This document shows, in pieces, positions 2,809-29,900 of a stretch of DNA of 34,558 bases. Positions within the stretch are counted from its first letter, which is position 1. Each line of letters begins with the position of its first letter. Under the pieces are notes generated by a model. It made no database searches. It was given only the letters and a program-made list of their open reading frames with translations, and was not told where the DNA came from. The stretch covers positions 1-34,558 of the forward strand of contig BTVJ01000078.1 in the NCBI GenBank assembly GCA_045863395.1, written 5' to 3'. Both the position numbers and the translations under genes were made by a program. Source of the DNA: Myxococcales bacterium (GTDB lineage Bacteria; Myxococcota_A; UBA9042; JABWCM01; BTVJ01).

Positions 2809-3158
2809 CAGGCCTCCTCGTCGCCCAGCTCAATCTGCGCAAACCGACGGAACCAGACCGCGACGTCGATCAGGTCCCGCGACAGGGCGAGGTAATCCGC
2901 CAGCTCTGCGTCCTGAGCGCGCTTGAGGAGCGCGTCTTCGCCGGCCGCACCGTAGGTCTTGGCGAGGTCCCCCACGAAGCCCTTGCCCACGTCTCCACCG
3001 CGAGCGAGCACGAACACCAGCGCCTGCACGAGCCCTCCCTGCTGGATGATCGACGGCATCTTCCGGCAGAAGGTGTTGTACTTGGCCTTGGCGCCGTCCT
3101 CCTTCTTCGCGAGCACGTACTTGTGCGCTTCGACGGACCACTTCTGCTGCCTCGTCAT
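2808..3158 (-). CDS. cmr5: Type III-B small subunit Cmr5 (Cas11)
   Basis: About 116 aa and helical, with KMPSIIQQGGLVQALVF and WFRRFAQ. Lies between cmr4 and cmr6; the ATG at 3158 overlaps the cmr4 stop. Confidence 0.92.
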   Translation of the reverse strand: MTRQQKWSVEAHKYVLAKKEDGAKAKYNTFCRKMPSIIQQGGLVQALVFVLARGGDVGKGFVGDLAKTYGAAGEDALLKRAQDAELADYLALSRDLIDVAVWFRRFAQIELGDEEA

Positions 3159-4039: not shown

Positions 4040-4064
4040 CTTCAAACCTCCGCGCTAGTTTCCT

Positions 4065-5342: not shown

Positions 5343-6466
5343 CACGCCACTCCCACGGCACAGAGTCCAAACCCGTCGCGCCGGTCCTGCTCGTCGTCGC
5401 AGATGCTGCGCAGCCATCGCTCCGCCGCCCACGTCGAGACGTCGGTGCCCTCAGGCAGCTCCACCCAGTAGACGCTACCGGCAGGGGCCATGCGGCGCAC
5501 CGGCTTCGGGCCCGGCTTGCGGCCAGCCTCGGTCTCGAAGCTCCAGCCCGAGATGACCTGCGGGCGGCCGACCGCCGCAGCAACGATGCGTCCGCCGCCA
5601 AGGTCTCCTGGGCACCACCCATCGGCGAAGATGCCTGGGGTCAGCAGCACGAGGCGCACGGTGCGCGGGGCCCCGAACCTGACTGTCATCGACGGCCACC
5701 AGCGGGGCTCTCCGGCCGCCAGCCTGCTCAGCCGCTGCTCCCCTCCGAGGGTCACGGTGCCGTTCTTCGCGCACTTTGCACGCAGCGGCTCCGCCCACGG
5801 CGACTCGCAGCGAAACAGCAGCCCGAGGCGCTCGTTTCGTCCACCGAACCGCAGCCCCTCCGTCGAGAAGAGCATCCCCTCTGCGGCGGTCCCGGTCGTC
5901 GGGTCGATGCTGACGTGCGTCCTCTGCTCGACGGTCAAGGCTTCTCGACCAACCTTGCTCCGCTCCAGGACCTCCCTGCCCGATGGAGGCTCACGCAGCC
6001 AGACCTCGAGGTCACTCCAGGACCACAGGGCAGGGGCTGGCGCAGCCTTGCTCTTGGGCATCCCGCCGTCGACGGCGCGAAGGAGCCGCAGATCGGACGC
6101 GCCGGAGAGGTCCGTGCGGAAGTCTGCGCCAAGGTCGTCCGGGACGAGGCGCCTGCGCTCGACCAGGGATCCCCCTACACCGTCAGCCGGCCAGTTCCAG
6201 AGGCAGTCTGCCGGCGGCGGAACGAAGACCTCCCCGTCGTCAAGGCGGTAGAGCAGGGGGCCCCGCACAACAATCTCCTTGGCCTGAGCCACCGTCAGAC
6301 CGAAGCGACCTGTGTCATCGAGGCCAAGATGTGTGCGGACGCAGCCGGCCACGCTCGACGGCCAGGGAAATGGGAGCGTGCGCATGGGCTCTCCCTCCAG
6401 AGAGGGTCGACCATCGCGCAAGACCAGGGTGTCGCGCGGCTCGATGGTGAAGACGCCCTCGGTCAT
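5342..6466 (-). CDS. cmr3: Type III-B Cas5-like subunit Cmr3
   Basis: IEPRDTLVLRDGRP, PWPSSVAG, LGGEQR, LLTPGIF, ISGW, PAGSVYW and C-terminal GFGL. Confidence 0.95.
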   Translation of the reverse strand: MTEGVFTIEPRDTLVLRDGRPSLEGEPMRTLPFPWPSSVAGCVRTHLGLDDTGRFGLTVAQAKEIVVRGPLLYRLDDGEVFVPPPADCLWNWPADGVGGSLVERRRLVPDDLGADFRTDLSGASDLRLLRAVDGGMPKSKAAPAPALWSWSDLEVWLREPPSGREVLERSKVGREALTVEQRTHVSIDPTTGTAAEGMLFSTEGLRFGGRNERLGLLFRCESPWAEPLRAKCAKNGTVTLGGEQRLSRLAAGEPRWWPSMTVRFGAPRTVRLVLLTPGIFADGWCPGDLGGGRIVAAAVGRPQVISGWSFETEAGRKPGPKPVRRMAPAGSVYWVELPEGTDVSTWAAERWLRSICDDEQDRRDGFGLCAVGVA

Positions 6467-8565
6467 GGTGCGACCTCCGCTGTCTTGGGCCCACCGCCCC
6501 AGGCAATGTCCCAGGCGCGGAGGAACTCTCGCGCGAGCTGCAGCTCCTCGCCAAGGCCCGTCAACGCCTCCTTGGTTCGCTTCGCAATGTCGTGACGCCC
6601 GAGTTCTCCCGCTGCCGCGCTCCCGCCTGTGCCGGGAGCGCCGGTCAACGCACGGTCTATCACGGTATCGAGGTCCTTGAGTCTGGCCTCCAGGCGCTCT
6701 CTGGGCTCCCTGGCGAGGTCGCGCTCCCCGCGATGGCCGCGGCGACGACCCAGCGCCCCGCGGGCCAGGGCAACCATCGCCCGCGCCACCTGGGCCGACT
6801 CCTGCAGGCTCTGCGGGCTCTCACCCGCAGCGCGCGCGGCGACTGGCTCGAAAGTGCGAAGCGCCTCCTCGAACTCGAACGCCACCCGATCAGGGAGCTC
6901 CTCCGCCCGGAGGAGCAGCGCCCAATCCTCGAGCCGCCTGTCCAGGGCCTGGTCGTCGTCTCGCCAGGCTCCGCAGACGGTCAACGTGCCGCCGCTCCGC
7001 TTGTCCATCACGATGGCCAGGCTGTTGCGGCCCCCCTCCTTGGCCAGCGTCTCCGCGCGCTTCGCGAGCTTCCTGGCGTCGGACATGAGACTCAGGTGGT
7101 GCGCGATGCCGAGGCCGACGGACAGAGTCGGACGGTCGGCCTCCTCCTCGGACCACGCTGGAGACGTCCGCAGCTTCCGCGCAAAATCGTCGCGCAGCGC
7201 GCGGGCGCACTGGAGGGCCGTGTGCAGCGGCAGGAGCGCCAGCACGTCATCGCCACCCGAGTAGATCAGGCTCCCGGCGTGCCGCTCGACGATTCCGGCG
7301 CATGCGCTTGCGAATGCCTCGAGCTGCCTGCTGACCGCCCGGTGCTCGTCGGGAGTCTCGAGGCGGTCGAGTGCCGCCCCCATGCGATCCCCGTCCGCCA
7401 GGAGGAAGGCGTAATAGGCGGGTGGCTCGGACAGATCGAGCCGCCGCAGCAACCTCCTGAGCTCCTGGGATGCCTCTTGGGCACGACGCTTCAGCGCCCT
7501 CCGTCTCTCCTCCCCTGCACCGAGATCGGTGCATGCCTCGTCGAGGATCGCGGAGAGCTGGCCCTCGTAGAGGAGGCTCCCGTCGTAGCCCGGACCGTTC
7601 GGGCGCTGTCCGAGGACACGCGGGACCCTGATCGCCGCGCCATCTCCCAGAGGGCTCACGAGCGGGGCCTGCTTGTGGGTCTGACCGGGCCGGATGCGAT
7701 ATCGCTCCAGGTGGACGGATGCGCTTCTAGCGAGCCATCGCAGGTAGACCTCGACGTCGTCGTCGGCCTTCAGGCGCGCGATCCGTGCGAAGAGGGGCGC
7801 GGCCGCCACATGCGACGTGGAGTGGAAGACCGGCGGGCCGCTTGCGCGCCCCGGAGGCTTGGAAGCTCCCTCCCACTCCTCGTTCTCGACCGAGGCCAGC
7901 TCACACCCGATCCGCTTGAGCAGCCCAACACCGCACAGCCGCTCCTGCTGACCGACGAAGTATCTCCTGCGCCGCTCCTCTGGCTTCGCTCGCAGGGCGT
8001 GGTACATCGCCTCGTCGATCACCGACTCCCGCGCCCCGTCGAGAGAGGACTTGGGCACCCCGGGGCCCTGCGTCCAGGTGGGCTGACCCCACAGCTTGGA
8101 GAGCTTGCGGCGCGCGAGCAGCGCTTCGGCTGCTTCGCGTGCGCTCTTGTAGCCGCCAGGAGCCACTGGCACCGACACCCACATCCACTCGACGAGGTCC
8201 TTGAGCTGCTCCGTCGCAGTGGACCGGTGAAACCAACCATCGGGATCGTCGATGCGACCGAAGGCAGCCTCCGCATGCTCTGACAGGCGCCTGTCGACCG
8301 CGGATCGGGCCCTGGCCACGGCGTCGGAGATGCTCCGCCGAGGAACTCGCGCGAGGATCTTGTTCGCCACGGCCTTGTCGGGATCGATGTCCGCAGGGAA
8401 GACCAGCAGGTCCTCGGCGTCGGTCGCCAGCACCGCCTTGGCGGCCTCGCGAGACAAGTCGCTCAAGAGGAATGAGCCGAACCAGAGGTCCTGGCATCGC
8501 CGGGCCGTGGCAATGAAGTCCTGAACCGGACCCAGGCTGATCAGCAGCAGGTCATGCTCACTCAC
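6463..8565 (-). CDS. cas10: Cas10/Cmr2 large subunit, no HD domain, intact cyclase (Palm) motif
   Basis: Begins directly with LISLGPVQDFIATARRCQDLWFGSFLLS. Contains YYAFLLADGDRMG and IYSGGDDVLAL (GGDD at about 7246-7257). GTG at 8565 follows AGGAG. Confidence 0.96.
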   Translation of the reverse strand: MSEHDLLLISLGPVQDFIATARRCQDLWFGSFLLSDLSREAAKAVLATDAEDLLVFPADIDPDKAVANKILARVPRRSISDAVARARSAVDRRLSEHAEAAFGRIDDPDGWFHRSTATEQLKDLVEWMWVSVPVAPGGYKSAREAAEALLARRKLSKLWGQPTWTQGPGVPKSSLDGARESVIDEAMYHALRAKPEERRRRYFVGQQERLCGVGLLKRIGCELASVENEEWEGASKPPGRASGPPVFHSTSHVAAAPLFARIARLKADDDVEVYLRWLARSASVHLERYRIRPGQTHKQAPLVSPLGDGAAIRVPRVLGQRPNGPGYDGSLLYEGQLSAILDEACTDLGAGEERRRALKRRAQEASQELRRLLRRLDLSEPPAYYAFLLADGDRMGAALDRLETPDEHRAVSRQLEAFASACAGIVERHAGSLIYSGGDDVLALLPLHTALQCARALRDDFARKLRTSPAWSEEEADRPTLSVGLGIAHHLSLMSDARKLAKRAETLAKEGGRNSLAIVMDKRSGGTLTVCGAWRDDDQALDRRLEDWALLLRAEELPDRVAFEFEEALRTFEPVAARAAGESPQSLQESAQVARAMVALARGALGRRRGHRGERDLAREPRERLEARLKDLDTVIDRALTGAPGTGGSAAAGELGRHDIAKRTKEALTGLGEELQLAREFLRAWDIAWGGGPKTAEVAP

Positions 8566-8825
8566 GGTCGCTGCTCCTGGTTTGTACCACCCACTGCTTG
8601 GGTCTACCGGCGAACCACTGACGCTCAATTCCCTTCAAGGCGCTACGTTCCAGCCACTTGGCCATGTGCGTCTCCCCTACGGGGCACACCGCTCCCGACG
8701 GGCAACTTGTCCCCGGGGCGCTCCCCGCACGATCTCCCCTGAGCAGAACGTCCACGGAGAAGCTTCTGACGAAGGGGACTCCCCGAAGCCGGCCCCGCGA
8801 GAGAAGCACGACGGCTCCGGGTCTG

Positions 8826-9734
8826 TCAACCCAACTTCGCTCGCCCCGCCATCTCGACCCCCACCCGCCCGAGCCCGAATGACGTCTGCTTGCCCAGGTG
8901 GACCTGCTCCGCCGCTCGCAGCCACGGCGCGAAGGGCCCCACCGCTCCCTCGAACGTGGCCGTGCCGCCGAGGCCCTGCATGGGGTGGCGCTCATCGCGT
9001 GTGGTCGCCCGCCGTTCCCATCCGTGCGTAGCAAAGTCCGTGGCCACGAGCCGGACCTCCGCGGCGATCCGGCGCAGCTCCTGGAATCTGGCCTCGTCCT
9101 CCTCCCCGATCTGGCCGTAGAGCGCCGCCAGGGTCGCCAGACGGCGGTGAATCAGGGAGAACAGCCCGACGAACGTGGGGCACGTGACCGGCTCCTTGCG
9201 GACCTCCCACGCAAGCGGCGTGCGGCACCGCACGACGACAGTCCCGTCTCCCTCCGCCCCTCTCCCCAGGTCGAGGGCCCGCTCCCGGGCGCCCAGCCTT
9301 CGGACGCCCTGCAGCTCCACGCGCCCCTCGTCCGAGCCCAGGGGGAAGCGCTCGATGCCCTCCAGCATGGCGAGGAGGCGGCTCGCGTCCTCGTCGAGTG
9401 ACCCGAACACCTGCAAGCCCAGGAAGAGGCTGTGGCCCACTCCCAATTGCCGCTGTCCCGGCGTCGGGATGACGGGCACCCAGCGAGCCGGCGGCGTGCG
9501 CTGACCCACGAGCAAGGGGTGCGGCGCCGCCTCCAGGGCGGGCTCGAAGAGGCGCTGATACGCACACGCGCCAGGCTCTCCGCAGTCTCGCTCGCACCGG
9601 GGCGTCCGTGCGCAGGCCAGGGCGTGGAGACTCCTGCCGAGCACTCCGCGGAAGAGGCTGCCGGAGTGCTCCGGCAGAGCGAAGGGGCGCGTCACCCGGT
9701 AGGTGGCGCGCAGCGACGTGACCTTGAGCTCCAT
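8826..9734 (-). CDS. cas6: Cas6 crRNA-processing endoribonuclease (copy 1, Cys-cluster type)
   Basis: GSLFRGVLG, C..C..C..CAY cluster and C-terminal HLGKQTSFGLG G-loop. ATG at 9734 follows GAGGAG. Confidence 0.92.
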   Translation of the reverse strand: MELKVTSLRATYRVTRPFALPEHSGSLFRGVLGRSLHALACARTPRCERDCGEPGACAYQRLFEPALEAAPHPLLVGQRTPPARWVPVIPTPGQRQLGVGHSLFLGLQVFGSLDEDASRLLAMLEGIERFPLGSDEGRVELQGVRRLGARERALDLGRGAEGDGTVVVRCRTPLAWEVRKEPVTCPTFVGLFSLIHRRLATLAALYGQIGEEDEARFQELRRIAAEVRLVATDFATHGWERRATTRDERHPMQGLGGTATFEGAVGPFAPWLRAAEQVHLGKQTSFGLGRVGVEMAGRAKLG

Positions 9735-9765
9735 GTACCGCTCCTCACCGCTTCGTCCCCGTACT

Positions 9766-12066
9766 CTACTCCCCCAGAGTCTCCACCGTCCCGTCCTCAC
9801 GAATGACGACCCTGCCCGCCGCCACTCCCTTCGCGGTGACCACTGTCCCGCTGGCGGGGAAGTGGGCCTCCAGGTCTGCCGTCGCCTCTCCGCCGAGGCC
9901 CACGTGCAGCCACGGAGAGTCCTGGACGCCCGTCCCGTGGGCGCCGAAGCGCTCCCGCAGCACCTTGCTCTCGCCCACCGTCGCGATCACCCGCGCCCCT
10001 ACTCCGTCCCGGTTGGTCTTGCCCGCGCCGCTCCCCTCGAGGCGCACGAAGATCGCCTCCCCCCCCGCCTTGTTCCGATTCCTGAACGCACCCCGGCTCG
10101 CGACGAGGTCCAGGTCTCCGTCGCCGTCGATGTCTCCCACCACGGAGCCCCACCCGTCGTACACGGCGAGCCCGGACTGCCAGGTGACCTCCGTCCAGAG
10201 CGGGTGTCCGTCGTTGCGGTACATCTGGCTAGTGCGATCCGGGTAGATGCACGTGTAGAAGAGGTCGAGGTCTCCGTCGTTGTCCCAGTCCCACAGGTTG
10301 GGGTTCGAGGGAGTCTCCAGGTAGCGGATCCCGATCAGCTCCGTCACGTCCTGGAACACCGCGCCCGCTCCGCCCGGGTTCTCGTAGAGCGTCGCCTGCT
10401 GGCTGAACGTGATGAAGCGGGGATGCGCCAGGGCCGCGACGAACACGTCGAGATCCAGATCCCCGTCCACATCGCCCCAGGCGGCGCCGATGCTGTGCCC
10501 GAAGTAGATTGCCCCCATGGCGAAGGTGCCGACTCCGGTGAGCTTGTTGGCGTCTCCCGTCATCTCCACCTTGCCGCCGCCTTTGTTCTGGAAGAAGAAG
10601 TCCTTGTGGAGTCGGTAGTTGGTGACCAGGATGTCGACCAGGCCGTCGCCGTCCGCGTCCGCCGGCGCCACCCCACGCCCGGCCAGTCCCCCGATCTGGC
10701 CCTTCCAGGCGCCCGACGGCTGGGTGATGTCCGTGAAGGTGCCGTCGCCGTTGTTTCTCCAGAGCAGGTCCAGGGCTCCTTGCGCGGGCGGGTCCCAGCA
10801 GATGAAGTTGGCCTGGTAGAGATCCAGCCAGCCGTCATTGTCCACGTCGAGCCACGCGGCGGCCTCCGTCGGGACCGGCTGGTCCTTGTCGTCGCCGTTG
10901 CAGTTGAACTTCATGGTGTCGTCGATGCCAGACTCCGTGGTCACATCCGTGAAGCCCCCGCCGTCGTTGCGCAACAGGCGGTCCTGCGGGTTCTGGAAGC
11001 CCGTGGCGAAGTAGTCCGGGTCGCCGTCGTTGTCGTAGTCGCCGAAGACCCCGCCGTTGTGGCCCGTGATTCCTGGGAGCCAGGCCTCCGTCACGTCCGT
11101 GTACTTGCCGCCATCATTGAGGAACAGGCGCGGACCATCGAGCATGGCGTCCAGGTCTCCGTCTCCGTCGACGTCCGCCAGCGCGATGCGGGAGAAGCCC
11201 GGGAGCCCGAGGTCCTCCAACGAGACCGGCTCGAAGTCCTTGTCCTCGGGCTTCATCGGGTCGAGCAGCTCCACCTCGGCCTGCAGCAGGAAGTCGCCGG
11301 GGGACGCGGCGATGGCGGGGAAGCCCCCGGAGTCGGGGGGCTCAGCGGCGAACCACACCAGCGAGTGGGGCTGCTTCCCCTCCGGCGTCTCCGACGCTGC
11401 ATCGACGCTGAGCTGAGCCCCGCCCTCGTCCACGACGACGCCCGCGTAGAACATGCGGCCCGGCACCAGGTCCACCGGCCACGCCAGCGGGAACTCCACC
11501 CACGCCCCCTCGTCCGCCGGCGTCACCTCCCGCGTGACCGCCGCCAGGGGCGCCTCCACGTCGAAGTTGAAGAAGTTGCCGCCGAAGTCATCCCAGAGCA
11601 CCACCGTCGCCTCGCCCGCCGCCGGCACCCGGAGCTGCGCCCGCAGGCCCCAGATGCGCACCGGCTGCTCCATCTCGAAGCGCACGTACTCGTGGACCTG
11701 CTCCGGGGCCTTCTGGTACTGGAGCGCGCCGCTGGCGGTCCCGTCGTCGTAGGCGAGCCACTCGGTCGCGCCCTTGGGCGGCGGCGGTCCCGCGTCCTCG
11801 GCGTCCGCTCCCGCGGCGTCGCCATCGCCCGCGCCACCATCGCTGTGCCCGGCGTCCCCGGCGGCGTCGTCCATGGAGTCCCCGACGTCGCCGCCCGCGT
11901 CGCCCAGGGCAACCCCGTCCCCGCCGCCATCGAGCGCCGCATCCACGACACCGCCCGAATCCGAGACCTGCGCTACGTCCTCGGGCGTCTCTGGCTGCTC
12001 TCCATCGGATCCCGAGCCACAAGCGCCGAGCACTGCCAGGAACAGCACGGAACGGGACAAACGCAT
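9766..12066 (-). CDS. FG-GAP/VCBS-repeat lipoprotein with a C-terminal ASPIC/UnbV-like domain (CRTAC1-like)
   Basis: Lipobox LGAC, an Asp-Ala-Gly-rich linker, about seven D-x-D-x-D-G-x-x-D repeats and C-terminal NRDGVGARV...QDSPWLHVGLG. GGAGG precedes the ATG at 12066. Confidence 0.85.
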   Translation of the reverse strand: MRLSRSVLFLAVLGACGSGSDGEQPETPEDVAQVSDSGGVVDAALDGGGDGVALGDAGGDVGDSMDDAAGDAGHSDGGAGDGDAAGADAEDAGPPPPKGATEWLAYDDGTASGALQYQKAPEQVHEYVRFEMEQPVRIWGLRAQLRVPAAGEATVVLWDDFGGNFFNFDVEAPLAAVTREVTPADEGAWVEFPLAWPVDLVPGRMFYAGVVVDEGGAQLSVDAASETPEGKQPHSLVWFAAEPPDSGGFPAIAASPGDFLLQAEVELLDPMKPEDKDFEPVSLEDLGLPGFSRIALADVDGDGDLDAMLDGPRLFLNDGGKYTDVTEAWLPGITGHNGGVFGDYDNDGDPDYFATGFQNPQDRLLRNDGGGFTDVTTESGIDDTMKFNCNGDDKDQPVPTEAAAWLDVDNDGWLDLYQANFICWDPPAQGALDLLWRNNGDGTFTDITQPSGAWKGQIGGLAGRGVAPADADGDGLVDILVTNYRLHKDFFFQNKGGGKVEMTGDANKLTGVGTFAMGAIYFGHSIGAAWGDVDGDLDLDVFVAALAHPRFITFSQQATLYENPGGAGAVFQDVTELIGIRYLETPSNPNLWDWDNDGDLDLFYTCIYPDRTSQMYRNDGHPLWTEVTWQSGLAVYDGWGSVVGDIDGDGDLDLVASRGAFRNRNKAGGEAIFVRLEGSGAGKTNRDGVGARVIATVGESKVLRERFGAHGTGVQDSPWLHVGLGGEATADLEAHFPASGTVVTAKGVAAGRVVIREDGTVETLGE

Positions 12067-12624: not shown

Positions 12625-12639
12625 CCCCCGAGAGCCGGG

Positions 12640-14074: not shown

Positions 14075-15091
14075 ATGACCGAGCCCATGGACGAGTCACT
14101 GCGCGACGACGACGAGGGGCGGACCGCAGGCGCCGTTCTGCCCGTGGTCCGCATGATGACCGTGGAGCTGTCCCTCGTCGCCGACGAGACTGGCGCCCTC
14201 CCCGCCTGGCCGACCACGACCTTCCGCGGCGCCCTGGGCACCGCCCTGCGCCGTCGCGTCTGTGTGACCGGCTACGAGACCTGCGGCGGGTGTCCCCAGA
14301 TTCTGCACTGCTCCTACGGGCTGCTCTGGCACCCGCCCATGCCCGCCGACGTGCGGATTCCCCGCCGCGCCGAGTCTCCGCCCAAGCCTTACGTCATCGA
14401 AGCCGCCGGGGCTGGCCGCCCCCGGTCCGTCGCGAGAGGAGACCGCCTCGCACTGAGGCTCAAGCTCTTCGGGGACGTCAGAAACCACGTCCCGCACTTC
14501 ATCATGGCCGCCCGCGACGCCGCCGCCGGCGGGCTCGGCGCGCGCCTCCTGCGCTTCGCGCTCGTCGCGGCATCCAGCGTCGACAGAGACGGCCACGCAG
14601 TCCGACTGTGGACCGAGCGAGACGGCTTTCACCGCTACAACGAGCTCCAGCAGATCCTGGTGGCACAGTGGCCTCACGTTCCCGGGCGCAACCGGGTCCG
14701 CCTCTCCCTGGAGACTCCCCTCGCCATCAAGCGTGAGGGCGTGATCGCCTCCCGATTCCATCCAGACGTATTCACCGCGCGGCTCGGCGAACGCCTCGAT
14801 CTCCTGTCACTCTACTTCGAGGGTCGTGAGACTGACTGGGACTTCATGGCCCTCCGAGCGCTCTCCCGCGAGGCCCGGGTCATTCACCACGACGTCCGAC
14901 CCGACTCATTCATGCGAGACGCCGCGCGCCAGAGTCGGCGCGTCCCCATGGAGGGGCTGGTCGGGGAGCTGGTCCTGGAGGGCGTCCATCCACGGGTCCT
15001 GTCGCTGTGGAGGTGCGCGGAGCACATCCACGTGGGCAAGAACGCCGCGTTCGGGTTCGGCAAGGTGCGCGTCGAGGTCCTTTACCCGTGA
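14075..15091 (+). CDS. cas6: Cas6 endoribonuclease (copy 2, Cys-cluster type)
   Basis: TTFRGALG, CVTGYETCGGCPQILHCSY, PKPYVI and C-terminal HVGKNAAFGFG. The start is placed at ATG 14075 rather than the ORF-track start at 13283. Confidence 0.92.
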   Translation: MTEPMDESLRDDDEGRTAGAVLPVVRMMTVELSLVADETGALPAWPTTTFRGALGTALRRRVCVTGYETCGGCPQILHCSYGLLWHPPMPADVRIPRRAESPPKPYVIEAAGAGRPRSVARGDRLALRLKLFGDVRNHVPHFIMAARDAAAGGLGARLLRFALVAASSVDRDGHAVRLWTERDGFHRYNELQQILVAQWPHVPGRNRVRLSLETPLAIKREGVIASRFHPDVFTARLGERLDLLSLYFEGRETDWDFMALRALSREARVIHHDVRPDSFMRDAARQSRRVPMEGLVGELVLEGVHPRVLSLWRCAEHIHVGKNAAFGFGKVRVEVLYP

Positions 15092-15169
15092 CGGGCTGGC
15101 GAGATTTGTCGCGCGCGCCGAAACGTGGCACAACTGCGAGGAGCCTTGGGACCTTGGCCAGGAGGGGTC

Positions 15170-16972
15170 ATGGACATCGAGAGCATCCGCGCGCTCGCCC
15201 GCGCGGGGAGTCACGACGAAGCCGCCGGCGCGCTGGCGACGGCGCTGGCGGCCCCTGAGCCCCGCGACCACGTGGAGTGGGGCCGCCTGGCGGCCGAGCT
15301 GGGCGACGTCCATGGCGCAATCCGAGAGCTTCAGCTCGCGGTGCGGGACGCGCCGGCCAACCCGGACATCCTCGGAGAGCTGGCGGAGCTGTATCGCGAT
15401 CTCGGGGACGTGCGCCGGGAGGCCGCCCTGAGAGAGCGCCTCGCTGCGCTGGAAGGACGCGAGTGCGCCGCCGACGAGCGCCTGATCCTGCTCCGGGGTC
15501 TCTCCCCGGACGAGCCGCGCGCCAAGCCCCCCGTAGCCCCTCTCGCCGAGGAATCCGATGCGGACCGGGTGCGCTTCGTGCACCTGTTCGGCGGCCGCGA
15601 GGACGTCTACGCCCGCATGTGGTCGGACCCTCGAAAGGGCGTCGGCTACAGCCCCATCGAGCGCCCGCTGACCCCGGACGTGGTCCGGGCCCACCTGGCG
15701 GGAAGCGCCACGGTCGGCTCGTACGTGGTGCGCCTCGACGGGACGGTCACCTTCTTGGTGGTGGACCTGGACATCACGCGCCGCGCAGTCGAGCGGGCGC
15801 GCGGCGACCGGGACGAGACGCGCCGCCTCCGCAGGCTCGTCCACACCGAGGGGCTGCGCCTTCGGAGCGCACTCGAGGAGCGGGGCCTGCCGGCCTTCCT
15901 CGAGGACTCCGGGTACAAGGGTCGCCACCTGTGGTGTTTTCTGCGGGAGCCTCTGCCCGCCGACCTGGCCCACCGGCTCGGGGTCGCACTGACCCGTGCC
16001 CTGGCGCCCCAATCTCGGGATCTCGCGCTGGAGGCGTTCCCCAAGCAAGGGACGGTCAAGGCTGGCGGCCTTGGAAACCTCGTGAAGCTCCCTTTGGGCA
16101 TCCACCTGCGGTCCGGTCGGCGTGCCATGCTCCTCGACGAGGCTGGGGGTGTGGTCCACGACCCGTGGCCTCTCTTGCGCGAGGCGCCACGGCTGGAACG
16201 GGACACTGTGTTGAAGGCAATGGAGACGCTCCGGGCCGCACCGGTCTCCGTGGCCGCCGTGGGGGCCCGAGATGAGGAGGACACCGAGCCGCTCCCCCCG
16301 GTTCAGCGCCCCCTGACCCCGGCCCCCTTCACGGAGGCCGACTTCACGGCGCGCGCCGAGGTGGCGGTCATGCTCCGCGGGTGCCCGGTGCTGGCGTCGC
16401 TGGTCGACCGGGGGCTGACCCACCGCCGCCTGACCCACGACGAGCGGGTCGTGCTGCGGCACTCTCTGGGGCACACCCCGGCGGGCCTCCTCGCCGTGAA
16501 CTACCTCTTCGAGCGCTGCCCGGAGGTGCCGCCGCAGGACTTCCTGAAGACCCGCCTGTCCGGGAACCCCATCTCCTGCGCCGCGGTGCGCCGGCGCGTG
16601 CCCCACGTCTCCTCCCAGGTCGCGTGCCACTGCGAGTTCGCCAGCGCGGGCGACCAGTATCCGTCACCGCTCCTGCACCTGGAGGAGGCACGGGCGCTGG
16701 GGACGCTTGCTCCCCGAACGGTCGCGCCGGAGACTGCGCCCGAGGCCCCTGACGCGCCGGACGCTCAGGAGCTCGCCCGCGCCTACGCCCTGCTCATGGA
16801 GCGGCAGCGCGCCGTCGAAGCGGAGCTCCAGGCGACCCGCGCGGCGCTGCTGGAGCGTGCGACGGCGAAGCCCGACCGCCGGCTGCCCGTGGCGGGTGGC
16901 GCGTGGACCGTGAAGGACGACGAGGGTATGCCCGTGCTCTGCTGGGAGCCAGACCAGGCGCCGGGGGCCTGA
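15170..16972 (+). CDS. CRISPR-associated primase-polymerase (CAPP): TPR - AEP - PriCT-like Cys domain - coiled coil
   Basis: N-terminal TPR-like helices. FGGREDVYARMW, AEP motif I VVDLD (15764-15772), motif II SGYKGRHLW, LEAFPKQ and GNLVKLPLG. Four Cys in GCPVL, ISCAA and CHC. AGGAGG RBS; immediately upstream of cas1. Confidence 0.88.
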   Translation: MDIESIRALARAGSHDEAAGALATALAAPEPRDHVEWGRLAAELGDVHGAIRELQLAVRDAPANPDILGELAELYRDLGDVRREAALRERLAALEGRECAADERLILLRGLSPDEPRAKPPVAPLAEESDADRVRFVHLFGGREDVYARMWSDPRKGVGYSPIERPLTPDVVRAHLAGSATVGSYVVRLDGTVTFLVVDLDITRRAVERARGDRDETRRLRRLVHTEGLRLRSALEERGLPAFLEDSGYKGRHLWCFLREPLPADLAHRLGVALTRALAPQSRDLALEAFPKQGTVKAGGLGNLVKLPLGIHLRSGRRAMLLDEAGGVVHDPWPLLREAPRLERDTVLKAMETLRAAPVSVAAVGARDEEDTEPLPPVQRPLTPAPFTEADFTARAEVAVMLRGCPVLASLVDRGLTHRRLTHDERVVLRHSLGHTPAGLLAVNYLFERCPEVPPQDFLKTRLSGNPISCAAVRRRVPHVSSQVACHCEFASAGDQYPSPLLHLEEARALGTLAPRTVAPETAPEAPDAPDAQELARAYALLMERQRAVEAELQATRAALLERATAKPDRRLPVAGGAWTVKDDEGMPVLCWEPDQAPGA

Positions 16973-16974
16973 CC

Positions 16975-18024
16975 GTGGCCCTGTTGGCGCTGACGGACCC
17001 AGGGGCTCGGCTGACCGTGCGCGCCGGCGCGCTGCTGGTCGAGAAGGCGGGCGCGGTCCTCCACGAGGTGCGCCCCGACGACGTGGACGAGGTGCACGTC
17101 TACGGCGGCGCCGACCTGACCCCCGCGGCGCGCAACCTCCTGCTGCGCCAGGGCACCGACACCCTGTTCTTCACGGCGGACGGCCGGTGGCTCGGGCGCC
17201 TGCTGTCCACGGATAGCCGGAACCCGGTTCGGAAGCTGGCCCAGCTCCGCGTGCTCACCGACCCGACCCTCGCCCTCGCCTTCGCGCGCAGCGTCGTGGC
17301 CGGCAAGCTCATGAATCAGCGACACGTCCTGCTGCGCGTCGCCCGGGACCGGCCGAGCGACACCCTGGCCGGGGCCGTCGCGTCGCTGCGCCAGCTCGCT
17401 CGCCAGGCGCCGGACGCTCAGTCCATGGAAGCCCTTCGAGGGGTCGAGGGCTACGGCGCCGTGGTCTACTTCAAGGGGTTCGCGGAGGCGATCACCCACC
17501 CGGTCTTGCGGTTTGCCGGGCGCAACCGCCGCCCTCCCCGAGACCCGGTCAACGCCTGTCTCTCCTTCGGATACACCCTGCTGCTCGCGCGGGCGGACTC
17601 TGCCCTGCGGCGGGCCGGGCTCGACCCGTCCATCGGCGCCCTTCATGTGCCAGAGCCCGGGAAGCCGGCGCTGGGGCTCGACCTCATCGAGGAGCTGCGA
17701 CCCCTCGTGGTGGACCGCCTGGTCCTGCGCCTGATCAACCGCTCCCAGCTCGCGCCGGACGACTTCGAGGAGCCGGGCATTGCTAGCGAGACCATCGCGA
17801 CCCCGGAGGACCCGCAGGATCCCCCCGTGCGCGCCGTCTGGCTCGGACCGGTCGGGCGCGCGGTGTTCCTGCGAGAGATCGGTCAGCTCTGGCGCACCCC
17901 CTGGGTCGGGCTCGACGGCAAGCGCTGGGCGGCGTCGGCGATCCTGGACCAGCAGGCCCAGGCCATCGCCCGCTTTGTCGAGTCTCCCGACGTGGGATAC
18001 TCTCCCTACCACCCGCCCGCGTGA
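16975..18024 (+). CDS. cas1: Cas1 integrase
   Basis: LRGVEG, RNRRPPRDPVNACLSFGY, GLDPSIGALH and LGLDLIEELRPLVVD. GTG lies 2 bp after the CAPP stop. Confidence 0.96.
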   Translation: MALLALTDPGARLTVRAGALLVEKAGAVLHEVRPDDVDEVHVYGGADLTPAARNLLLRQGTDTLFFTADGRWLGRLLSTDSRNPVRKLAQLRVLTDPTLALAFARSVVAGKLMNQRHVLLRVARDRPSDTLAGAVASLRQLARQAPDAQSMEALRGVEGYGAVVYFKGFAEAITHPVLRFAGRNRRPPRDPVNACLSFGYTLLLARADSALRRAGLDPSIGALHVPEPGKPALGLDLIEELRPLVVDRLVLRLINRSQLAPDDFEEPGIASETIATPEDPQDPPVRAVWLGPVGRAVFLREIGQLWRTPWVGLDGKRWAASAILDQQAQAIARFVESPDVGYSPYHPPA

Positions 18025-18308
18025 CCGCCATGCACCTCGTGGTCTGCTACGACATCATCGACGACCGCCGCCGGACGCGGCTGTTCAAGAGACTCAAGGG
18101 CTTCCTTGTGCCTGTCCAGAAGAGCGTGTTCGAGGGGGTGCTCCCCGACCGGCGCTATCCGGCACTTGTGCGCACCATCCGGTCCAACGTCGACGAGGCC
18201 ATCGACACGGTGCGCATCTACCACCTCTGCAAGGGCTGCGGCGGCCTCACCGAGCTCATCGGCGTGAGCGTCCCGGTCGCGGACGGACCCCAGGACATCG
18301 TGGTGTAG
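18021..18308 (+). CDS. cas2: Cas2
   Basis: VVCYDIIDDRRR, VQKSVFEG, DTVRIYHLC. Start is GTG 18021 or ATG 18030. Confidence 0.96.
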   Translation: MTAMHLVVCYDIIDDRRRTRLFKRLKGFLVPVQKSVFEGVLPDRRYPALVRTIRSNVDEAIDTVRIYHLCKGCGGLTELIGVSVPVADGPQDIVV

Positions 18309-18310
18309 CC

Positions 18311-21274
18311 ATGGCGCAGACCGGATACGTCCCATCCTTCGAGCGGGCCACGTCCGAGACTGCCCTCGCGCGCGCGTGGGCGCACGTCCGGGCAAAGCGG
18401 TCCGCGGCGGGCGTCGACCGGGTGACGGTGGATCAGTTCGCCGAGGGCGTACAGGCCCGACTCGGCGAGCTGTCCGCGGCGCTGCGCAGCGACTCCTGGC
18501 AGCCGCTGCCGGGGCTGCGGCTCGCGTGTCCCGCTCGCCCTGGGCGCGAGCTGGTGATCCCCGCCGTAGCTGACCGGGTGGTCCAGCGCGCGATTGCGGG
18601 AGAGCTGACCCCCTTCTACGACCCGCGCCTGAGCCAGAGCGCCTGGGCGTATCGGCCCGGCCGCTCCGTGGGGCAGGCAGTCGCCAAGGTGGAGCGCATG
18701 GTCCGCGGGGGCATGGGGTGGTACGCCCGGACCGACATCGAGAAGTTCTTTGACCGGATTGATCGGCCTCGGCTGCTGGCGACGCTAGCCGACGAGCTGG
18801 AGCCCCGCATCGTGGAGCTGGTGGGACGACTGCTCACCGCGGGCGCCCTGGAGGGGGCCGTGGTCTTCGATCCCGGCCTGGGAGTCCCCCAAGGGAGCGC
18901 CCTGTCTCCGCTGCTCTCCAACGTGTATCTACGGCCTGTAGATGCGGCCATGGAGGCTGCGGGCTTCGCCACCATCCGGTACGCCGACGACATCCTGATG
19001 CTCGGGGCCACGGAGACCGAGTCTGCCGACGCCCTCGCCTGTCTCGGCGACGCGGTGGAGCGGCTTGACCTGAGACTGTCTGCCCGCAAGACCGCCCGGG
19101 GACACGCCGGCGGCGGCTTCGTCTATCTCGGGGTGCGCTTCGACGCGGGCGGGCGGGCTCCGACCGCGGAGGCGCTGGACGCCCTCGACCGTCGCTGCGC
19201 GGAGAGCGGAGACACCGCGGTTGGGACGCTCGTGCGGGAGTGGGAGCGGTGGTACGGACCGGTCCCCGTGCGCCGCGTGCGATCTCTCGCGTTGCTGGCG
19301 GCCCTGGTGGAGCAAGCGGTCCCAGAGTCTCCACTGGCCTCCGCTCTCGCACGCAGGCGCATGGAGCTCGGCGACGTGCGCGCACACGCAGGAGTCCACG
19401 AGCGCCTCGCCGGGCTGTGGTCCTGCGCTCCTGCCCACCAGGAGTTCCTGTGCGCACTCCTCCTCGATGCGGCGGCCGTGGCGCGGAGCGGCGACTCCGA
19501 ACGCGTGGCGCGGGCGGCGCGGTTCGCCGGGGTGCCCTTGTCGGTCATGCCCGCGCTCGCGAAGGGGATGGACCGCGCACGGGGCGCCCTCGGGGCCTGC
19601 GGGCGGGTGTCTCTGGCCCAGGCAGCGCGGGCGCTCCTCGAGCGAGGGCGGTGGGCTCCGCTGTCCGGGGAAGGCGCACCCGAGGAGGTCGCGGCGGCGG
19701 TGCAGGCGCGAGAGCTGGACGTGTGGGTGCGCCGCCTCGACGGGCGCGAAGGGGTGCACGCCGAGGAGGAGGTCGACGGACGGGGACACCGGCAGCTCAA
19801 CCTGGTGAGGGGACCGCTCACCGCCGACCACCTGCGACGGCACCTGGCCGGAAGGGCGCGAGTCGGGGTCTACCCGGTGCGCTCGGACCAGACGGTGAGG
19901 TTCGCGGTGTTCAGCGTCACCGTGAAGCGGGAGGCGATGCTCCCTCCCTGGGCGGCCGCCGCGGGTGCAGTCCGCCCAGACGACGCGCGGGACCGCTGGC
20001 AGGCGCTTGTCGGGCGGGCCCACGACCACGCCGTGACGGTGGGGCGCGCCATGCACCGGCTGGGGCTCGACCCGCTGCTGGAGGACACGGGCACGACCGG
20101 GCGCCGCGTCTGGGTCCTGTTCGCGGACCCGGTGGAGCTCCGGCACGTACACGCGCTGCTCGGGAGAGTCGAGGAGGCGGTGGGGGAGACGCCACCCGAA
20201 CTGCACCGGGAGCGCGTTCCCGCGCTGGACCGCGTCCTGAACGCGCCCGGGCCTGCCGTGCTGCTCCCCCTGGGGATTGACCCCCGGAGCCGTCGCCGGA
20301 GCGCCTTCGTCGACGTGGGCGGAGCGCCCTTCGAGGACCTGCTGAGCCCGCTCCTCGAGCTGACTGGGGCAGCGCCCTCGGCCATTCGCGGGCTGGTCGT
20401 GCGGGGAGGGCAGCGGACGGAGGACGGCCCGCGCAGCTCAGCAGCCCTGAGGCTCGTGACGCCCTATCCGCGGGCCTTGCGAGTGCTGGCAGGGTGTGCC
20501 GTGCTGCGCGCCCTCGGGGACAAGTTCGCGACCCTGGACCACCTGGAGCGGGAGGAGCGAGCGTCTCTCATCGAGGCGCTGTCGGTCCTGCCGGACCCCG
20601 ATGGATCAGGGGCGCTGGGGGCGCTGCTCCGGGCCACGGAGGGGACGGCGGCGGCGGATCTGCGCTACCGACTGCGTCGTCGGCCGGACCATCCGGTGAG
20701 CTGCGCCAGGCTGCGCCAGCGGCACCCGAAGGCGGCCGCGGCGGGGTGTACGTGTACCTTTCATGGGCTGCACGGAGGAGCGTACCCGACGCCGGCGCTA
20801 CACACGCTGCGGCCGGGGGAGATCCCGGCCTTCCGGGCGCGCATGGAGGAGCGGCGGGCGCGGCGGGGTGGAGCGGGCGGCGCGGGCGGAGCGAGAGGCG
20901 TGATGCCCATCGGCCCGGCGCCTCGGTTGGAGCGGTCGGACGACGGGCGCGGCGGGGTGGCGAGCGGCCCCGTCGAGACGCAGGCGCCCACGAAGCCGCT
21001 CCATGTGGCGACGGAGGCAGGCACCGGCGCCGAGGACGACGGCGCCCGTCCCCTCGACCAGGCCGAGCTGGTCCGCCGCGTCGAGCTGTGGCTGACCAAG
21101 CTCCAGAATCTGCGGACAGCCGCGGAGAACACGGCGCGGGGAATCGCGCGCGCCGAGGAGAGCCTCGCGAGGCTGCTGTCGTCGGCGGGTCTTGACCGAG
21201 TCAAGGTATCACAGGGCTCACTGGTGCTCGTCCCGGGCAGTCCACCTCGCTTCAAGCTGGAGAGAGACCTCTAG
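18311..21274 (+). CDS. CRISPR-associated reverse transcriptase fused to a degenerate CAPP (AEP + PriCT-like) module
   Basis: RT motifs AAGVD, IPAVADRVVQ, AYRPGRS, DIEKFFDRI, PQGSALSPLLSNVYL and RYADD (YADD at 18980-18991). The C-terminal half aligns by eye with the upstream CAPP. The ATG is 2 bp after the cas2 stop; 987 aa. Confidence 0.9.
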   Translation: MAQTGYVPSFERATSETALARAWAHVRAKRSAAGVDRVTVDQFAEGVQARLGELSAALRSDSWQPLPGLRLACPARPGRELVIPAVADRVVQRAIAGELTPFYDPRLSQSAWAYRPGRSVGQAVAKVERMVRGGMGWYARTDIEKFFDRIDRPRLLATLADELEPRIVELVGRLLTAGALEGAVVFDPGLGVPQGSALSPLLSNVYLRPVDAAMEAAGFATIRYADDILMLGATETESADALACLGDAVERLDLRLSARKTARGHAGGGFVYLGVRFDAGGRAPTAEALDALDRRCAESGDTAVGTLVREWERWYGPVPVRRVRSLALLAALVEQAVPESPLASALARRRMELGDVRAHAGVHERLAGLWSCAPAHQEFLCALLLDAAAVARSGDSERVARAARFAGVPLSVMPALAKGMDRARGALGACGRVSLAQAARALLERGRWAPLSGEGAPEEVAAAVQARELDVWVRRLDGREGVHAEEEVDGRGHRQLNLVRGPLTADHLRRHLAGRARVGVYPVRSDQTVRFAVFSVTVKREAMLPPWAAAAGAVRPDDARDRWQALVGRAHDHAVTVGRAMHRLGLDPLLEDTGTTGRRVWVLFADPVELRHVHALLGRVEEAVGETPPELHRERVPALDRVLNAPGPAVLLPLGIDPRSRRRSAFVDVGGAPFEDLLSPLLELTGAAPSAIRGLVVRGGQRTEDGPRSSAALRLVTPYPRALRVLAGCAVLRALGDKFATLDHLEREERASLIEALSVLPDPDGSGALGALLRATEGTAAADLRYRLRRRPDHPVSCARLRQRHPKAAAAGCTCTFHGLHGGAYPTPALHTLRPGEIPAFRARMEERRARRGGAGGAGGARGVMPIGPAPRLERSDDGRGGVASGPVETQAPTKPLHVATEAGTGAEDDGARPLDQAELVRRVELWLTKLQNLRTAAENTARGIARAEESLARLLSSAGLDRVKVSQGSLVLVPGSPPRFKLERDL

Positions 21275-26918: not shown

Positions 26919-29900
26919 GTGCCGACCCCTTCCCCGACTACGAGGGGATTGAGACTTTCCTCCCGCCTCGTAGGCCAATTCCCTACCAGAAGGCAGTGCC
27001 GACCCCTTCCCCGACTACGAGGGGATTGAGACACGGCCTACACGCACCCCCCAGACTTGACGGACGACCTTCTGTGCCGACCCCTTCCCCGACTACGAGG
27101 GGATTGAGACTTTCGACGGTTATGATCCTGGTCGAGATGGTGCAGAATGGCGTGCCGACCCCTTCCCCGACTACGAGGGGATTGAGACTGCAACGCCTTG
27201 TCGAGCCCGTCGAGCCTGCCGCGGTTGGTGCCGACCCCTTCCCCGACTACGAGGGGATTGAGACCGGTCGCGGGCTTGACGTTGATCGACAGGTGGACCC
27301 GTCGGTGCCGACCCCTTCCCCGACTACGAGGGGATTGAGACTTCTCTGCCGCTTCCCGGAAGCTGTCAATTGCATTGTCCGTGCCGACCCCTTCCCCGAC
27401 TACGAGGGGATTGAGACGAGGATGAGGGCCAGGACGGCCAGGGTGAGGTGCAGTCGGGTGCCGACCCCTTCCCCGACTACGAGGGGATTGAGACGGGCGG
27501 GGTCGTGTCGGGCTGGGACGTGTCGGCGCTGGGTGCCGACCCCTTCCCCGACTACGAGGGGATTGAGACGTGCGTGCAGTACCCGTCCCCGTCCGCGTCC
27601 ACGCAGGGCGTGCCGACCCCTTCCCCGACTACGAGGGGATTGAGACTGTCCGATACTATTCGCGTCGGACCCACGCGCCGGAGTTGTGTGCCGACCCCTT
27701 CCCCGACTACGAGGGGATTGAGACCTTCAGGCTCGTGTACCGAAGGTCCGCGCCCGTCAGGTTGTGCCGACCCCTTCCCCGACTACGAGGGGATTGAGAC
27801 GTCCGCGTCCTTCAGGCTCGTGTACCGAAGGTCCGCGCCCGTGCCGACCCCTTCCCCGACTACGAGGGGATTGAGACGGCCAAGTATGCCGCTTTGGTCG
27901 CTGCCCGGAAATCGTCGTGCCGACCCCTTCCCCGACTACGAGGGGATTGAGACAATGAAGACGGCCGGCCCACCTTGACTCCCCAGACTTGAGTGCCGAC
28001 CCCTTCCCCGACTACGAGGGGATTGAGACCCCTGGAGGTCCGCGCCCGACAGGTTTGCACCCGTCAGGGTGCCGACCCCTTCCCCGACTACGAGGGGATT
28101 GAGACCTCAGAGTGCCCAACTCAATAAGCGCGCCGCCGAGCGTTGGAGTGCCGACCCCTTCCCCGACTACGAGGGGATTGAGACTGGTGACCGTCGTCGT
28201 CGCCGGGGTGGTGACCGCCGTCGTGTGCCGACCCCTTCCCCGACTACGAGGGGATTGAGACTGTGACCACGAGGTCACTCATGTTCGCTCGTAGCCACGG
28301 CGTGCCGACCCCTTCCCCGACTACGAGGGGATTGAGACCTCGCCACAGCTTTGCAAACCCCGCTCGCCGGAACCGTTCCCGTGCCGACCCCTTCCCCGAC
28401 TACGAGGGGATTGAGACTTCCACCGCTGCCCGGAAGCTGTCAATTGCATTGTCCTGAATGTGCCGACCCCTTCCCCGACTACGAGGGGATTGAGACACTC
28501 GCCAGCCGCCGCGGCCGCACGAATCTCGTTGCCCAGTGCCGACCCCTTCCCCGACTACGAGGGGATTGAGACGAACGAAAACCGACACTCCCGGCGCGAC
28601 GGTACCGTCCTGTGCCGACCCCTTCCCCGACTACGAGGGGATTGAGACACTATACCGCCCGCGACCCCCCCAAAAATCACAAACGGGATCGGTGCCGACC
28701 CCTTCCCCGACTACGAGGGGATTGAGACTGCCCGTGGCAAATAAAGGTGTCGGAGGTTCGCGCCCTGGGTGCCGACCCCTTCCCCGACTACGAGGGGATT
28801 GAGACAACAAGGTCATCCATGTTCGCGCGCAACCAAGGCCAGAAGGTGCCGACCCCTTCCCCGACTACGAGGGGATTGAGACTGTCCGTCGGGTCCTGTC
28901 ACAACCCAATTGTGGTTTGGTGCCGACCCCTTCCCCGACTACGAGGGGATTGAGACGATGATTTTCTCAACATCTTCCCTTGCGATACCGGCCGAGTGTG
29001 CCGACCCCTTCCCCGACTACGAGGGGATTGAGACCAGTAGCATATGCCGCTTCGGCCGCTGCCCGGAAGTTGTCAGTGCCGACCCCTTCCCCGACTACGA
29101 GGGGATTGAGACTGTGGAACCTCACCCAAGGCCAGAAATTGGCCTCGGTGAAGTGCCGACCCCTTCCCCGACTACGAGGGGATTGAGACTAGCATATCCT
29201 CCCGTGTCCACGTCAACAGACCCTGAGGGGTGCCGACCCCTTCCCCGACTACGAGGGGATTGAGACTACCGACCTTGACTCCCCAAACAGAGCGAATGAC
29301 CTTTTCGAGTGCCGACCCCTTCCCCGACTACGAGGGGATTGAGACAGGTCCACACGCGCCATGGACCACTGGGGCAGAAGGGCTTGTGCCGACCCCTTCC
29401 CCGACTACGAGGGGATTGAGACTCCTATCGTTGTCACACAAGGAATGCAGCCTAGCAACCGGTGCCGACCCCTTCCCCGACTACGAGGGGATTGAGACTA
29501 CATGGCCCTTTGATAGCCTCCAGCTGGTCCACCTTGGACGTGCCGACCCCTTCCCCGACTACGAGGGGATTGAGACCCCAGCCGATAAAGGGCCTACATG
29601 GCCCTTTGATAGCCTGTGCCGACCCCTTCCCCGACTACGAGGGGATTGAGACCGCGACCACGGCGCTCCCGGCGCCGAATGCGGCGCCGGCAGGTGCCGA
29701 CCCCTTCCCCGACTACGAGGGGATTGAGACGCAGCATGGCGCCGCTCCCCTCGTACACGGGGGTGGCGTCCCCGTGCCGACCCCTTCCCCGACTACGAGG
29801 GGATTGAGACTTCTCCTCGAAGCGGGCGTCCTCGATGACAAGGTCGTTGAAGTGCCGACCCCTTCCCCGACTACGAGGGGATTGAGACTTGTTCGACTGC

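Follow-up and report, generated by a model that had tools for sequence, protein, structure and literature searches.

CRISPR-associated primase-polymerases (CAPPs) have been described as DNA-dependent primase-polymerases with strand-displacement activity that work poorly on RNA templates; through their C-terminal domains they associate with Cas1 and with one another, and both the self-association of MpCAPP and the inactivity of its AxA mutant are reported in the main-text passages compared here (Zabrady et al., 2021; PMC8211822). Fusions of a reverse transcriptase (RT) to a CAPP are known from Caloramator australicus (CaCART-CAPP) and Geobacillus lituanicus (GlCART-CAPP). In the passages compared, the RT domain, able to prime on both RNA and DNA, accounts for the whole of their priming and polymerase activity. 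Neither protein has an active Prim-Pol domain, and such inactivity was proposed to be a common feature, given that the RT does its own priming (Zabrady et al., 2023; PMC10415136). Toro et al. (2019), as quoted in a review passage (PMC8632793), noted RTs "adjacent or fused" to an AEP. The subject here is a stretch of 34,558 nucleotides (the window) from a Myxococcales bacterium (assembly GCA_045863395.1, contig BTVJ01000078.1), with a G+C content of about 70%, whose + strand carries five closely spaced genes at 14075-21274: cas6, a TPR-type CAPP, cas1, cas2, and an RT-CAPP fusion. The standalone CAPP has intact primase-polymerase motifs, and the AEP domain of the fusion, hereafter RT-ψCAPP where it is degenerate, is very unlikely to be active by its residues.

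The standalone protein resembles MpCAPP and MsCAPP (PDB 7nqd and 7p9j) in its layout of a putative TPR region, an AEP, and a C-terminal domain and in its intact DxD, His, and Glu residues (Zabrady et al., 2021; PMC8211822), and the order CAPP-cas1-cas2 is that of the type III-B locus of Marinitoga piezophila/Marinitoga sp. 1137, on whose CAPP the family model NF040561 was built. The window differs from M. piezophila in having an RT-fused CAPP after cas2, where the latter has Ago. Like CaCART-CAPP and GlCART-CAPP, the fusion consists of an N-terminal group II intron-like RT with YxDD, a Prim-Pol domain, and a C-terminal domain, encoded beside cas1-cas2, and the Prim-Pol domain, inactive by assay there, is predicted to be inactive through loss of its catalytic residues here. 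It is longer than CaCART-CAPP (987 versus 713 residues), and its RT is only remotely similar (8bgj, E = 3.4e-6). Its catalytic residues are gone across a whole clade, the DxD state of the two published proteins lying outside the passages compared, and its operon holds an intact standalone CAPP, which is absent from those passages (PMC10415136). The RT-Cas1 and Cas6-RT-Cas1 fusions (Marinomonas mediterranea; 7kft) likewise bring a group II intron-like RT into type III adaptation and take spacers from RNA (RT match E = 2.8e-28); in the window, unlike in these fusions, the RT is joined to a pseudo-primase, and Cas1 and Cas2 are encoded by separate genes, with Cas1 upstream. The DRT7 and PPRT defence proteins, compared by description only, also combine an RT with a Prim-Pol domain in a single chain, but according to those descriptions they are not CRISPR-associated, the domain order of PPRT is reversed, and both domains are reported to contribute activities.

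Given the inactivity data of Zabrady et al. (2023), a dead primase domain in an RT-CAPP is as such not new. No description of a second standalone CAPP in an RT-CAPP operon was found in the literature, of which main-text passages were covered, and a prior description is possible; the pairing of the two paralogues, which by gene content is real and recurrent across phyla, is apparently undescribed. A preliminary description of this locus had called the two-paralogue arrangement uncharacterised, which holds for the pairing, no paper on it having been found, and does not hold for the inactive Prim-Pol domain of an RT-CAPP, already published (PMC10415136). The locus bears on how type III systems make integration-ready double-stranded DNA (dsDNA) prespacers from RNA, and on why RT-CAPP fusions keep an inactive primase domain, a question left open in the passages compared from the 2023 paper (PMC10415136).

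The standalone CAPP and the RT-CAPP fusion

The standalone CAPP gene (15170..16972, + strand, 600 residues) has an AGGAGG ahead of its ATG. Its product matches NF040561 ("CRISPR-associated primase-polymerase type A1") at 275.2 bits over residues 30-552 (NCBIfam; cut-off 200), Pfam AEP-TOTE PF22548 at E = 1e-38, and the solved Prim-Pol domain of MsCAPP (7nqd) at E = 1.7e-24, with the DxD, His, and Glu aligned. Within its AEP domain (residues 128-340), D199/D201, H253, and E288 pair with the DID, His, and Glu of MsCAPP and are invariant or almost so among 32 relatives; the motifs read TFLVVDLDIT (motif I, 15749-15778, + strand, with the D-L-D of residues 199-201 at 15764..15772), EDSGYKGRHLW (motif II, 15902-15934, + strand), and LEAFPKQ (motif III, 16028-16048, + strand). 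The C-terminal domain has four conserved cysteines (C405/C470/C486/C488) and a terminal helix, and a putative TPR region at about residues 23-81 is matched by TPR_19 (E = 0.003) and TPR_9 (E = 0.0085), both under the Pfam cut-offs, the NF040561 alignment starting at residue 30. Judged from its matches to NF040561, PF22548, and MsCAPP, the upstream gene is a bona fide TPR-type CAPP and its product a predicted DNA-dependent primase-polymerase.

The RT-CAPP fusion (18311..21274, + strand, 987 residues) is of the CART-CAPP type and combines RVT_1 with AEP-TOTE, with a TIGR04416 match of 196 bits. Its RT domain (residues 81-276, 18551..19138, + strand; RVT_1 E = 3.7e-23) is group II intron-like, the best solved relative being the GsI-IIC RT (6ar1, E = 3.4e-38), and has the motif YADD (18980-18991, + strand), in which Y..DD is at least 90% conserved in a 36-row alignment of dead-AEP relatives. 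The pseudo-AEP domain was placed at residues 460-699 (19688..20407, + strand) from AlphaFold2, Foldseek, and motif alignments; Pfam AEP-TOTE matches residues 502-684 (E = 2.5e-14), and the fused CAPP part scores 128.5 bits against NF040561, under the cut-off of 200. In the alignment to solved MsCAPP, YDIDIKK/GYHIW/VEIFP pair with FSVTVKR/GRRVW/RERVP of the fusion. Motif I reads RFAVFSVTVK (19898-19927, + strand), with S535-V-T537 at 19913-19921, and motif II reads EDTGTTGRRVW (20081-20113, + strand), with R599 replacing the His. Motif III reads RERVPAL (20207-20227, + strand), and its Glu, E634, aligns with E288 of the standalone CAPP and with the motif III Glu of MsCAPP, so that only motifs I and II are lost. 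When a competent AEP is defined by the motif I DxD and the motif II His, the fused domain falls outside the definition. As both motif I aspartates are absent and an Arg stands in for the motif II His, canonical two-metal catalysis is very unlikely in the fused AEP, which is classed from its sequence as a dead pseudo-enzyme. Beyond it lie a CAPP-type C-terminal domain with the cysteines C729/C798/C813/C815 (20435..20887, + strand), helical in the model, and a terminal predicted helix of 42 residues with three strands (21059..21262, + strand), to which the tail of the standalone CAPP is homologous. Across 36 relatives of the fusion, the RT motifs, the four cysteines, and the tail are kept.

The two proteins are 30% identical over 387 residues (BLASTP, E = 6e-27), and in a profile-profile comparison CAPP columns 106-608 match RT-CAPP columns 426-960 with a probability of 100% (E = 1.3e-70). 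Since this match spans the end of the TPR region, the AEP, the four-cysteine domain, and the helix and beta tail, the fused part amounts to a near-complete CAPP. An AlphaFold2 model of residues 460-987, made with 36 aligned relatives, has a mean pLDDT of 84.8, with most of the AEP above 93, and past the AEP it consists, in order, of the helical cysteine-bearing domain, a disordered stretch, the 42-residue helix, and the three strands. A Foldseek search with the model returned MsCAPP Prim-Pol structures first (7nqe, E = 6.9e-16, target TM 0.87, root-mean-square deviation 2.3 Å), and as modelled, the fused domain retains the AEP/CAPP fold.

These results bear out most of what the preliminary description had read from the letters: that cas1-cas2 lies between two proteins with a CAPP module (genes, coordinates, and homology), that the quoted motifs stand where it had placed them, and that the upstream AEP is intact, with SxT and a His-to-Arg change in the fused one and the RT YADD kept. 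The profile alignment of the two proteins supports the homology, and the fused AEP is predicted to fold like MsCAPP without the DxD and His. Motif III, which had also been thought lost in the fusion, retains its Glu, and of the shared module of AEP, four cysteines, and coiled coil the first two parts stand, the coiled coil being only a predicted helix followed by three strands.

Loss of catalytic residues across a clade of RT fusions

A HMMER search with window residues 460-987 gave 743 representatives at E <= 0.001, and the best 150 of the 743 were aligned together with locus-derived proteins, which yielded 164 distinct domains (AEP plus C-terminal domain) in a set biased to relatives of the query. 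It comprises 53 RT-fused intact, 42 RT-fused degenerate, 64 unfused intact, and five unfused degenerate domains, the last of which may be gene fragments. A FastTree phylogeny of the 164 rows groups 39 of the 42 degenerate fused domains with four unfused degenerate ones in a 43-row clade (support 99), inside which a 40-row subclade with the window (support 98) stands beside a three-row branch typified by locus L025. IQ-TREE, run with a mixture model on a 68-row subsample chosen by the analyst, also recovered the window's subclade (21 of the 68 rows, SH-aLRT 98), and its union with the L025 branch had a support of only 50. In this tree L011, L015, and P0052 lie apart, reading N-L-N with the His kept, and are nested among intact fusions (SH-aLRT 99); by its position, this NLN clade (L011/L015) is a second, independent loss of motif I.

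Within the window's type, which has 41 distinct domains, the two motif I acids never occur together (0/41), and their positions are taken by a variety of residues (R, E, T, H, S, D, V, and others); the motif II His has become Arg in 35 of the 41, and 11 have an acidic residue in motif III. Within the dead clade, pairwise identity averages 0.464 for the RT, 0.310 for the AEP, and 0.416 for the C-terminal domain, the corresponding values for intact fusions being 0.367, 0.344, and 0.399; relative to the RT, this gives 0.67 versus 0.94 for the AEP and 0.90 versus 1.10 for the C-terminal domain. These ratios point to an AEP that is relaxed yet retained in the dead clade and to a conserved C-terminal domain. 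The window-type clade spans several phyla with full-length open reading frames (ORFs), and such a large clade, with loss visible at the sequence level and a conserved His-to-Arg change, appears to be new.

A recent duplication as the source of the window's pair was ruled out. The standalone CAPPs belong to a TPR-CAPP clade (48 rows, support 98) that is distant from the dead fused one, and the low identity between the two paralogues of the window also disfavours it.

Co-occurrence with an intact standalone CAPP

A scan of one genome per species gave 80 loci, 22 of them with an RT-AEP fusion. The survey was widened by the window and by two fusion loci of a 401-genome phylum sample, and genomes from which the loci came were searched as a whole with PF22548. 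An intact standalone CAPP accompanies the degenerate fusion in 13 of 16 genomes, versus one of the 12 that hold an intact fusion, that one being the window's own genome, in which the intact fusion sits at a different locus (Fisher p = 3e-4, the genomes being related and kinship uncorrected). A second CAPP was found in none of the 11 intact-fusion genomes searched (L014, L017, L018, L019, L052, L064, L077, L146, L151, L155, and L156); the genome-wide search covered these and left aside the intact fusions L010 and L013. The window's subclade alone has a standalone CAPP in 11 of 12 genomes.

The CAPP lies in the same locus as the degenerate fusion in the window, L001, L004, L005, L009 (in divergent orientation), L011, and L145. 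In L007 it shares the contig of the fusion, about 12.7 kb upstream of it, and in L003, L006, L008, L015, and L035 it sits on other contigs of fragmented assemblies. Contig L114 ends in the N-terminus of an RT and L035 begins at RT residue 162, so that their operon is almost certainly continuous. The order CAPP-cas1-cas2-RT-ψCAPP is shared by L001, L004, L005, L145, and L114 with L035, with cas6 ahead where the sequence reaches. The standalone CAPP match of L005 (L005:7309-8421) has one in-frame stop, which could be a sequencing error or mark a recently broken gene. Degenerate fusions without a partner are L002, L025, and L148. Counted as events, the window's clade and the NLN clade are concordant with the association, and the L025 type, in which the genes are ordered cas2-RT-ψCAPP-cas1, is discordant.

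Several candidates were dropped from the survey. The phylum-wide PF22548 candidates L147, L149, L150, L152, and L154 are unrelated AEPs without an RT, a sixth (L153) gave no match, and TOTE-type matches above 300 bits, which are no CAPPs, were left out of the partner counts.

A reciprocal change of the RT motif in some fusions with an intact AEP

The motif YSDN replaces YxDD in nine of the 55 readable intact-AEP fusions and in none of the 50 degenerate-AEP fusions (0/50); the RT of L151 reads YCDN, and all dead-AEP fusions whose RT motif could be read keep xxDD. Loss of both the RT and the AEP site was seen in no fusion of the sample, and this never-both-dead pattern, with YSDN confined to intact-AEP fusions, appears from the motifs to be new. 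The window's own genome holds an example on contig C64 (L105:8040-14664, - strand), an 842-residue RT-CAPP with YSDN in the RT and the DID, His, and Glu intact, which is followed by cas1-cas2 and has ThiF-like (E1) and JAB-like genes upstream.

A further fusion, L156 (G041:C129:1-14000, at about 3086-5745, - strand), is a 1304-residue frame that joins an RT with YADD to a TPR-CAPP with DLD, His, and Glu and is followed by cas1-cas2. Its CAPP match starts at CAPP residue 31, so the fusion keeps the whole TPR region.

Proposed roles of the two proteins and alternative explanations

In its gene order and motifs, the operon looks like a composite in which a Marinitoga-type CAPP-cas1-cas2 module has been joined to an RT-CAPP gene turned pseudo-primase. 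It seems somewhat probable that CAPP and RT-ψCAPP cooperate in one adaptation complex. The RT domain would prime and copy RNA or single-stranded DNA into complementary DNA (cDNA), by analogy with other CRISPR-associated RTs. The pseudo-CAPP part, which may retain the CAPP surfaces for binding Cas1 and other CAPPs, would serve as a docking or nucleic-acid-holding module toward Cas1-Cas2 or toward the active CAPP, docking to the latter through the homologous C-terminal domains. The standalone CAPP, if it behaves as its described relatives do, would supply a DNA-templated primase-polymerase and strand displacement, for synthesis of the second strand or for gap filling once integration has taken place. 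A scaffold or clamp role and a pipeline from RNA to dsDNA, both put forward in the preliminary description, are what we infer; priming by the separate CAPP, which it also suggested, would not be needed by the RT, since the published CART RT primes itself (passages of PMC10415136).

Contact between the two proteins was modelled by folding the CAPP C-terminal domain (residues 390-600) against residues 709-987 of RT-ψCAPP with the analyst's own alignments. The pair reached an ipSAE of 0.48 (median of three runs) versus 0.02 for the best of three controls, which points weakly to a contact; the runs agree in at least 54% of contacts, with a partner pLDDT of at least 64. Of 157 solved complexes, 116 reached the ipSAE mark, as did two of 215 mismatched pairs, counts that are only roughly valid here as own alignments were used; at values of 0.60 or less, only 18 of the 157 solved complexes reached it, as did both of the mismatches that passed. 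Because the chains are paralogous and MpCAPP self-associates, the pass may reflect likeness, not binding.

Two parallel, uncoupled routes into one integrase are possible but rather unlikely; RT-ψCAPP alone would then serve acquisition from RNA, and CAPP would serve DNA acquisition or post-integration repair. The RT of RT-ψCAPP would prime and make both strands, the dead AEP would be a relic of takeover by the RT, as in the redundancy idea of Zabrady et al., kept only for docking the RT to Cas1-Cas2, and the co-occurrence would reflect the fusion history of the operon, not cooperation. Such routes gain from several observations that at the same time weigh against cooperation. CART-CAPP RT domains prime and extend on RNA and DNA templates (passages of PMC10415136), and published RT domains are able to make both strands alone, so that CAPP need not act on RT products. 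Dead fusions also exist without any CAPP: none was found by whole-genome search in L025 and L148, nor in the flanks, the part searched, of four metagenome loci of the same type (L106, L107, L108, and L110), which came from a metagenome scan with a 5-row alignment that gave five loci, four of them informative and all of the L025 type. These loci indicate that loss of the AEP does not need a partner CAPP and that the pseudo-domain persists without one, and the earlier expectation that DxD is lost only where a second CAPP is in the operon fell with them. No co-phylogeny of co-resident CAPPs and RT-ψCAPPs was found (Mantel r = -0.29, p = 0.89, n = 8), the power of this test being low because the identities are flat (0.29-0.46). 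The two genes lie apart in L006 and L007, and CAPP operons without an RT fusion, a further point for uncoupled routes, are common in the 401-genome phylum sample. Cooperation is also weakened by L002, which is of the window's type and has no standalone CAPP, although it is a 2.9 Mb bin with its contig cut inside cas1, by the origin of the co-resident CAPPs from two CAPP subclades (FastTree), by the remoteness of the window's RT from that of CaCART-CAPP, across which the biochemistry would have to be carried, and by the two to three independent events on which the association rests, so that the Fisher test overstates it. Against uncoupled routes stand the presence of CAPP in 11 of the 12 genomes of the window's subclade, the tight gene order in five further loci, the CAPP that again accompanies the second independent loss (NLN), and the modelled C-terminal contact, weak as it is and open to explanation by paralogue likeness.

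Cooperation could go further, and the pseudo-CAPP could be an obligate adaptor that forms a heterodimer with TPR-CAPP through the C-terminal domains on Cas1-Cas2 and hands over cDNA for second-strand synthesis; a dedicated RNA-to-dsDNA prespacer machine would then have arisen at least twice (in the window's clade and the NLN clade), the fusions of an RT with YSDN to an active AEP being the mirror solution. This extended form is speculative and on balance unlikely. That the fused AEP is not dead at all, with E634, E591/D592, or the conserved Arg pair serving a non-canonical activity (nucleotide binding, terminal transfer, or nuclease-like), is quite improbable: the motif III Glu is kept in the window and in 11 of 41 clade members, the conservation of GRRxW (Arg in 35 of 41) suggests that the former active site has a function under selection, and the fold is confidently kept, but no clade member has both motif I acids, both positions vary freely, and the passages compared report inactivity of the MpCAPP AxA mutant (PMC8211822) and of the Prim-Pol domains of two other fusions (PMC10415136). 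That the RT-CAPP gene is decaying and without function, leaving an ordinary CAPP-cas1-cas2 module to do the work of the operon, is highly improbable. Measured against the RT, the AEP has evolved faster than its counterpart in intact fusions (identity ratio 0.67 versus 0.94), which would fit decay, but the 987-residue ORF is intact and tightly coupled to cas2, the RT motifs, cysteines, and tail are conserved across the 36 relatives, the structure model is confident, and full-length ORFs occur in several phyla.

An RT with a dead primase domain and an intact primase-polymerase, alongside lineages with the opposite or neither arrangement, constitutes a natural experiment. Cooperation, if true, would explain the retention of the pseudo-domain and define a three-enzyme adaptation complex; if there is no cooperation, the pattern still documents the pruning of redundant polymerase active sites.

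Layout of the CRISPR locus and neighbouring genes

With Cmr genes and an array in the window, the locus is by its gene content a type III-B system with its own adaptation operon. The operon is headed by a cas6-like gene (14075..15091, + strand; Pfam CRISPR_Cas6 PF10040, E = 1.2e-10), whose start is uncertain (candidates 14075, 14087, and 14153). Downstream of CAPP, cas1 (16975..18024, + strand; Pfam Cas_Cas1, E = 2.5e-81; TIGR00287, 224 bits) probably starts at the GTG at 16975, 2 nt past the CAPP stop, an alternative GTG lying upstream at 16903. The GTG start of cas2 (18021..18308, + strand; Pfam CRISPR_Cas2, E = 1.1e-18) overlaps the cas1 stop (GTGA), and the ATG of RT-CAPP lies 2 nt past the cas2 stop. 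The effector genes cmr6, cmr5, cmr4, cmr1, cmr3, cas10/cmr2, and a second cas6-like gene occupy 1768..9986 on the - strand (NCBIfam and Pfam matches).

The CRISPR array (26919..34511, + strand) lies downstream of the adaptation operon and is unbroken. Its 99 repeats are 37 nt long and end in ATTGAGAC, its 98 spacers measure 35-44 nt, and its last repeat is degenerate, with two mismatches. Spacer 73 (window 32512-32551) has a perfect 40/40 match in its own genome (C136:11235-11274), and the other 97 spacers have no full-length match to their own assembly. The target of spacer 73 lies within a + strand ORF of 467 residues that is SMC/SbcC-type ATPase-like by reading of its translation, and, given the orientation, the CRISPR RNA from this spacer would be antisense to the mRNA of the target ORF.

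Convergent with RT-CAPP is an ORF of 791 residues (21277-23652, - strand) for which neither Pfam nor NCBIfam gave a match at the thresholds applied. The stretch 23354-26785 (+ strand), which lies between the adaptation operon and the leader of the array, holds a Cas_APE2256/CARF-like gene (E = 9.5e-16) and, after it, two ORFs that match no family (23986-25566 and 25586-26785); the CARF-like gene and the first of these overlap by about 350 nt in different frames, so that one of the two gene calls is doubtful. The CRISPR locus is interrupted at 9766-13500 by genes for an FG-GAP/ASPIC repeat protein and an FGE-sulfatase-like protein (both - strand), which separate the effector cas6 from the adaptation cas6. 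Next to cmr6, an AAA_14 ATPase gene (369-1607, - strand) could be a Cmr accessory gene.

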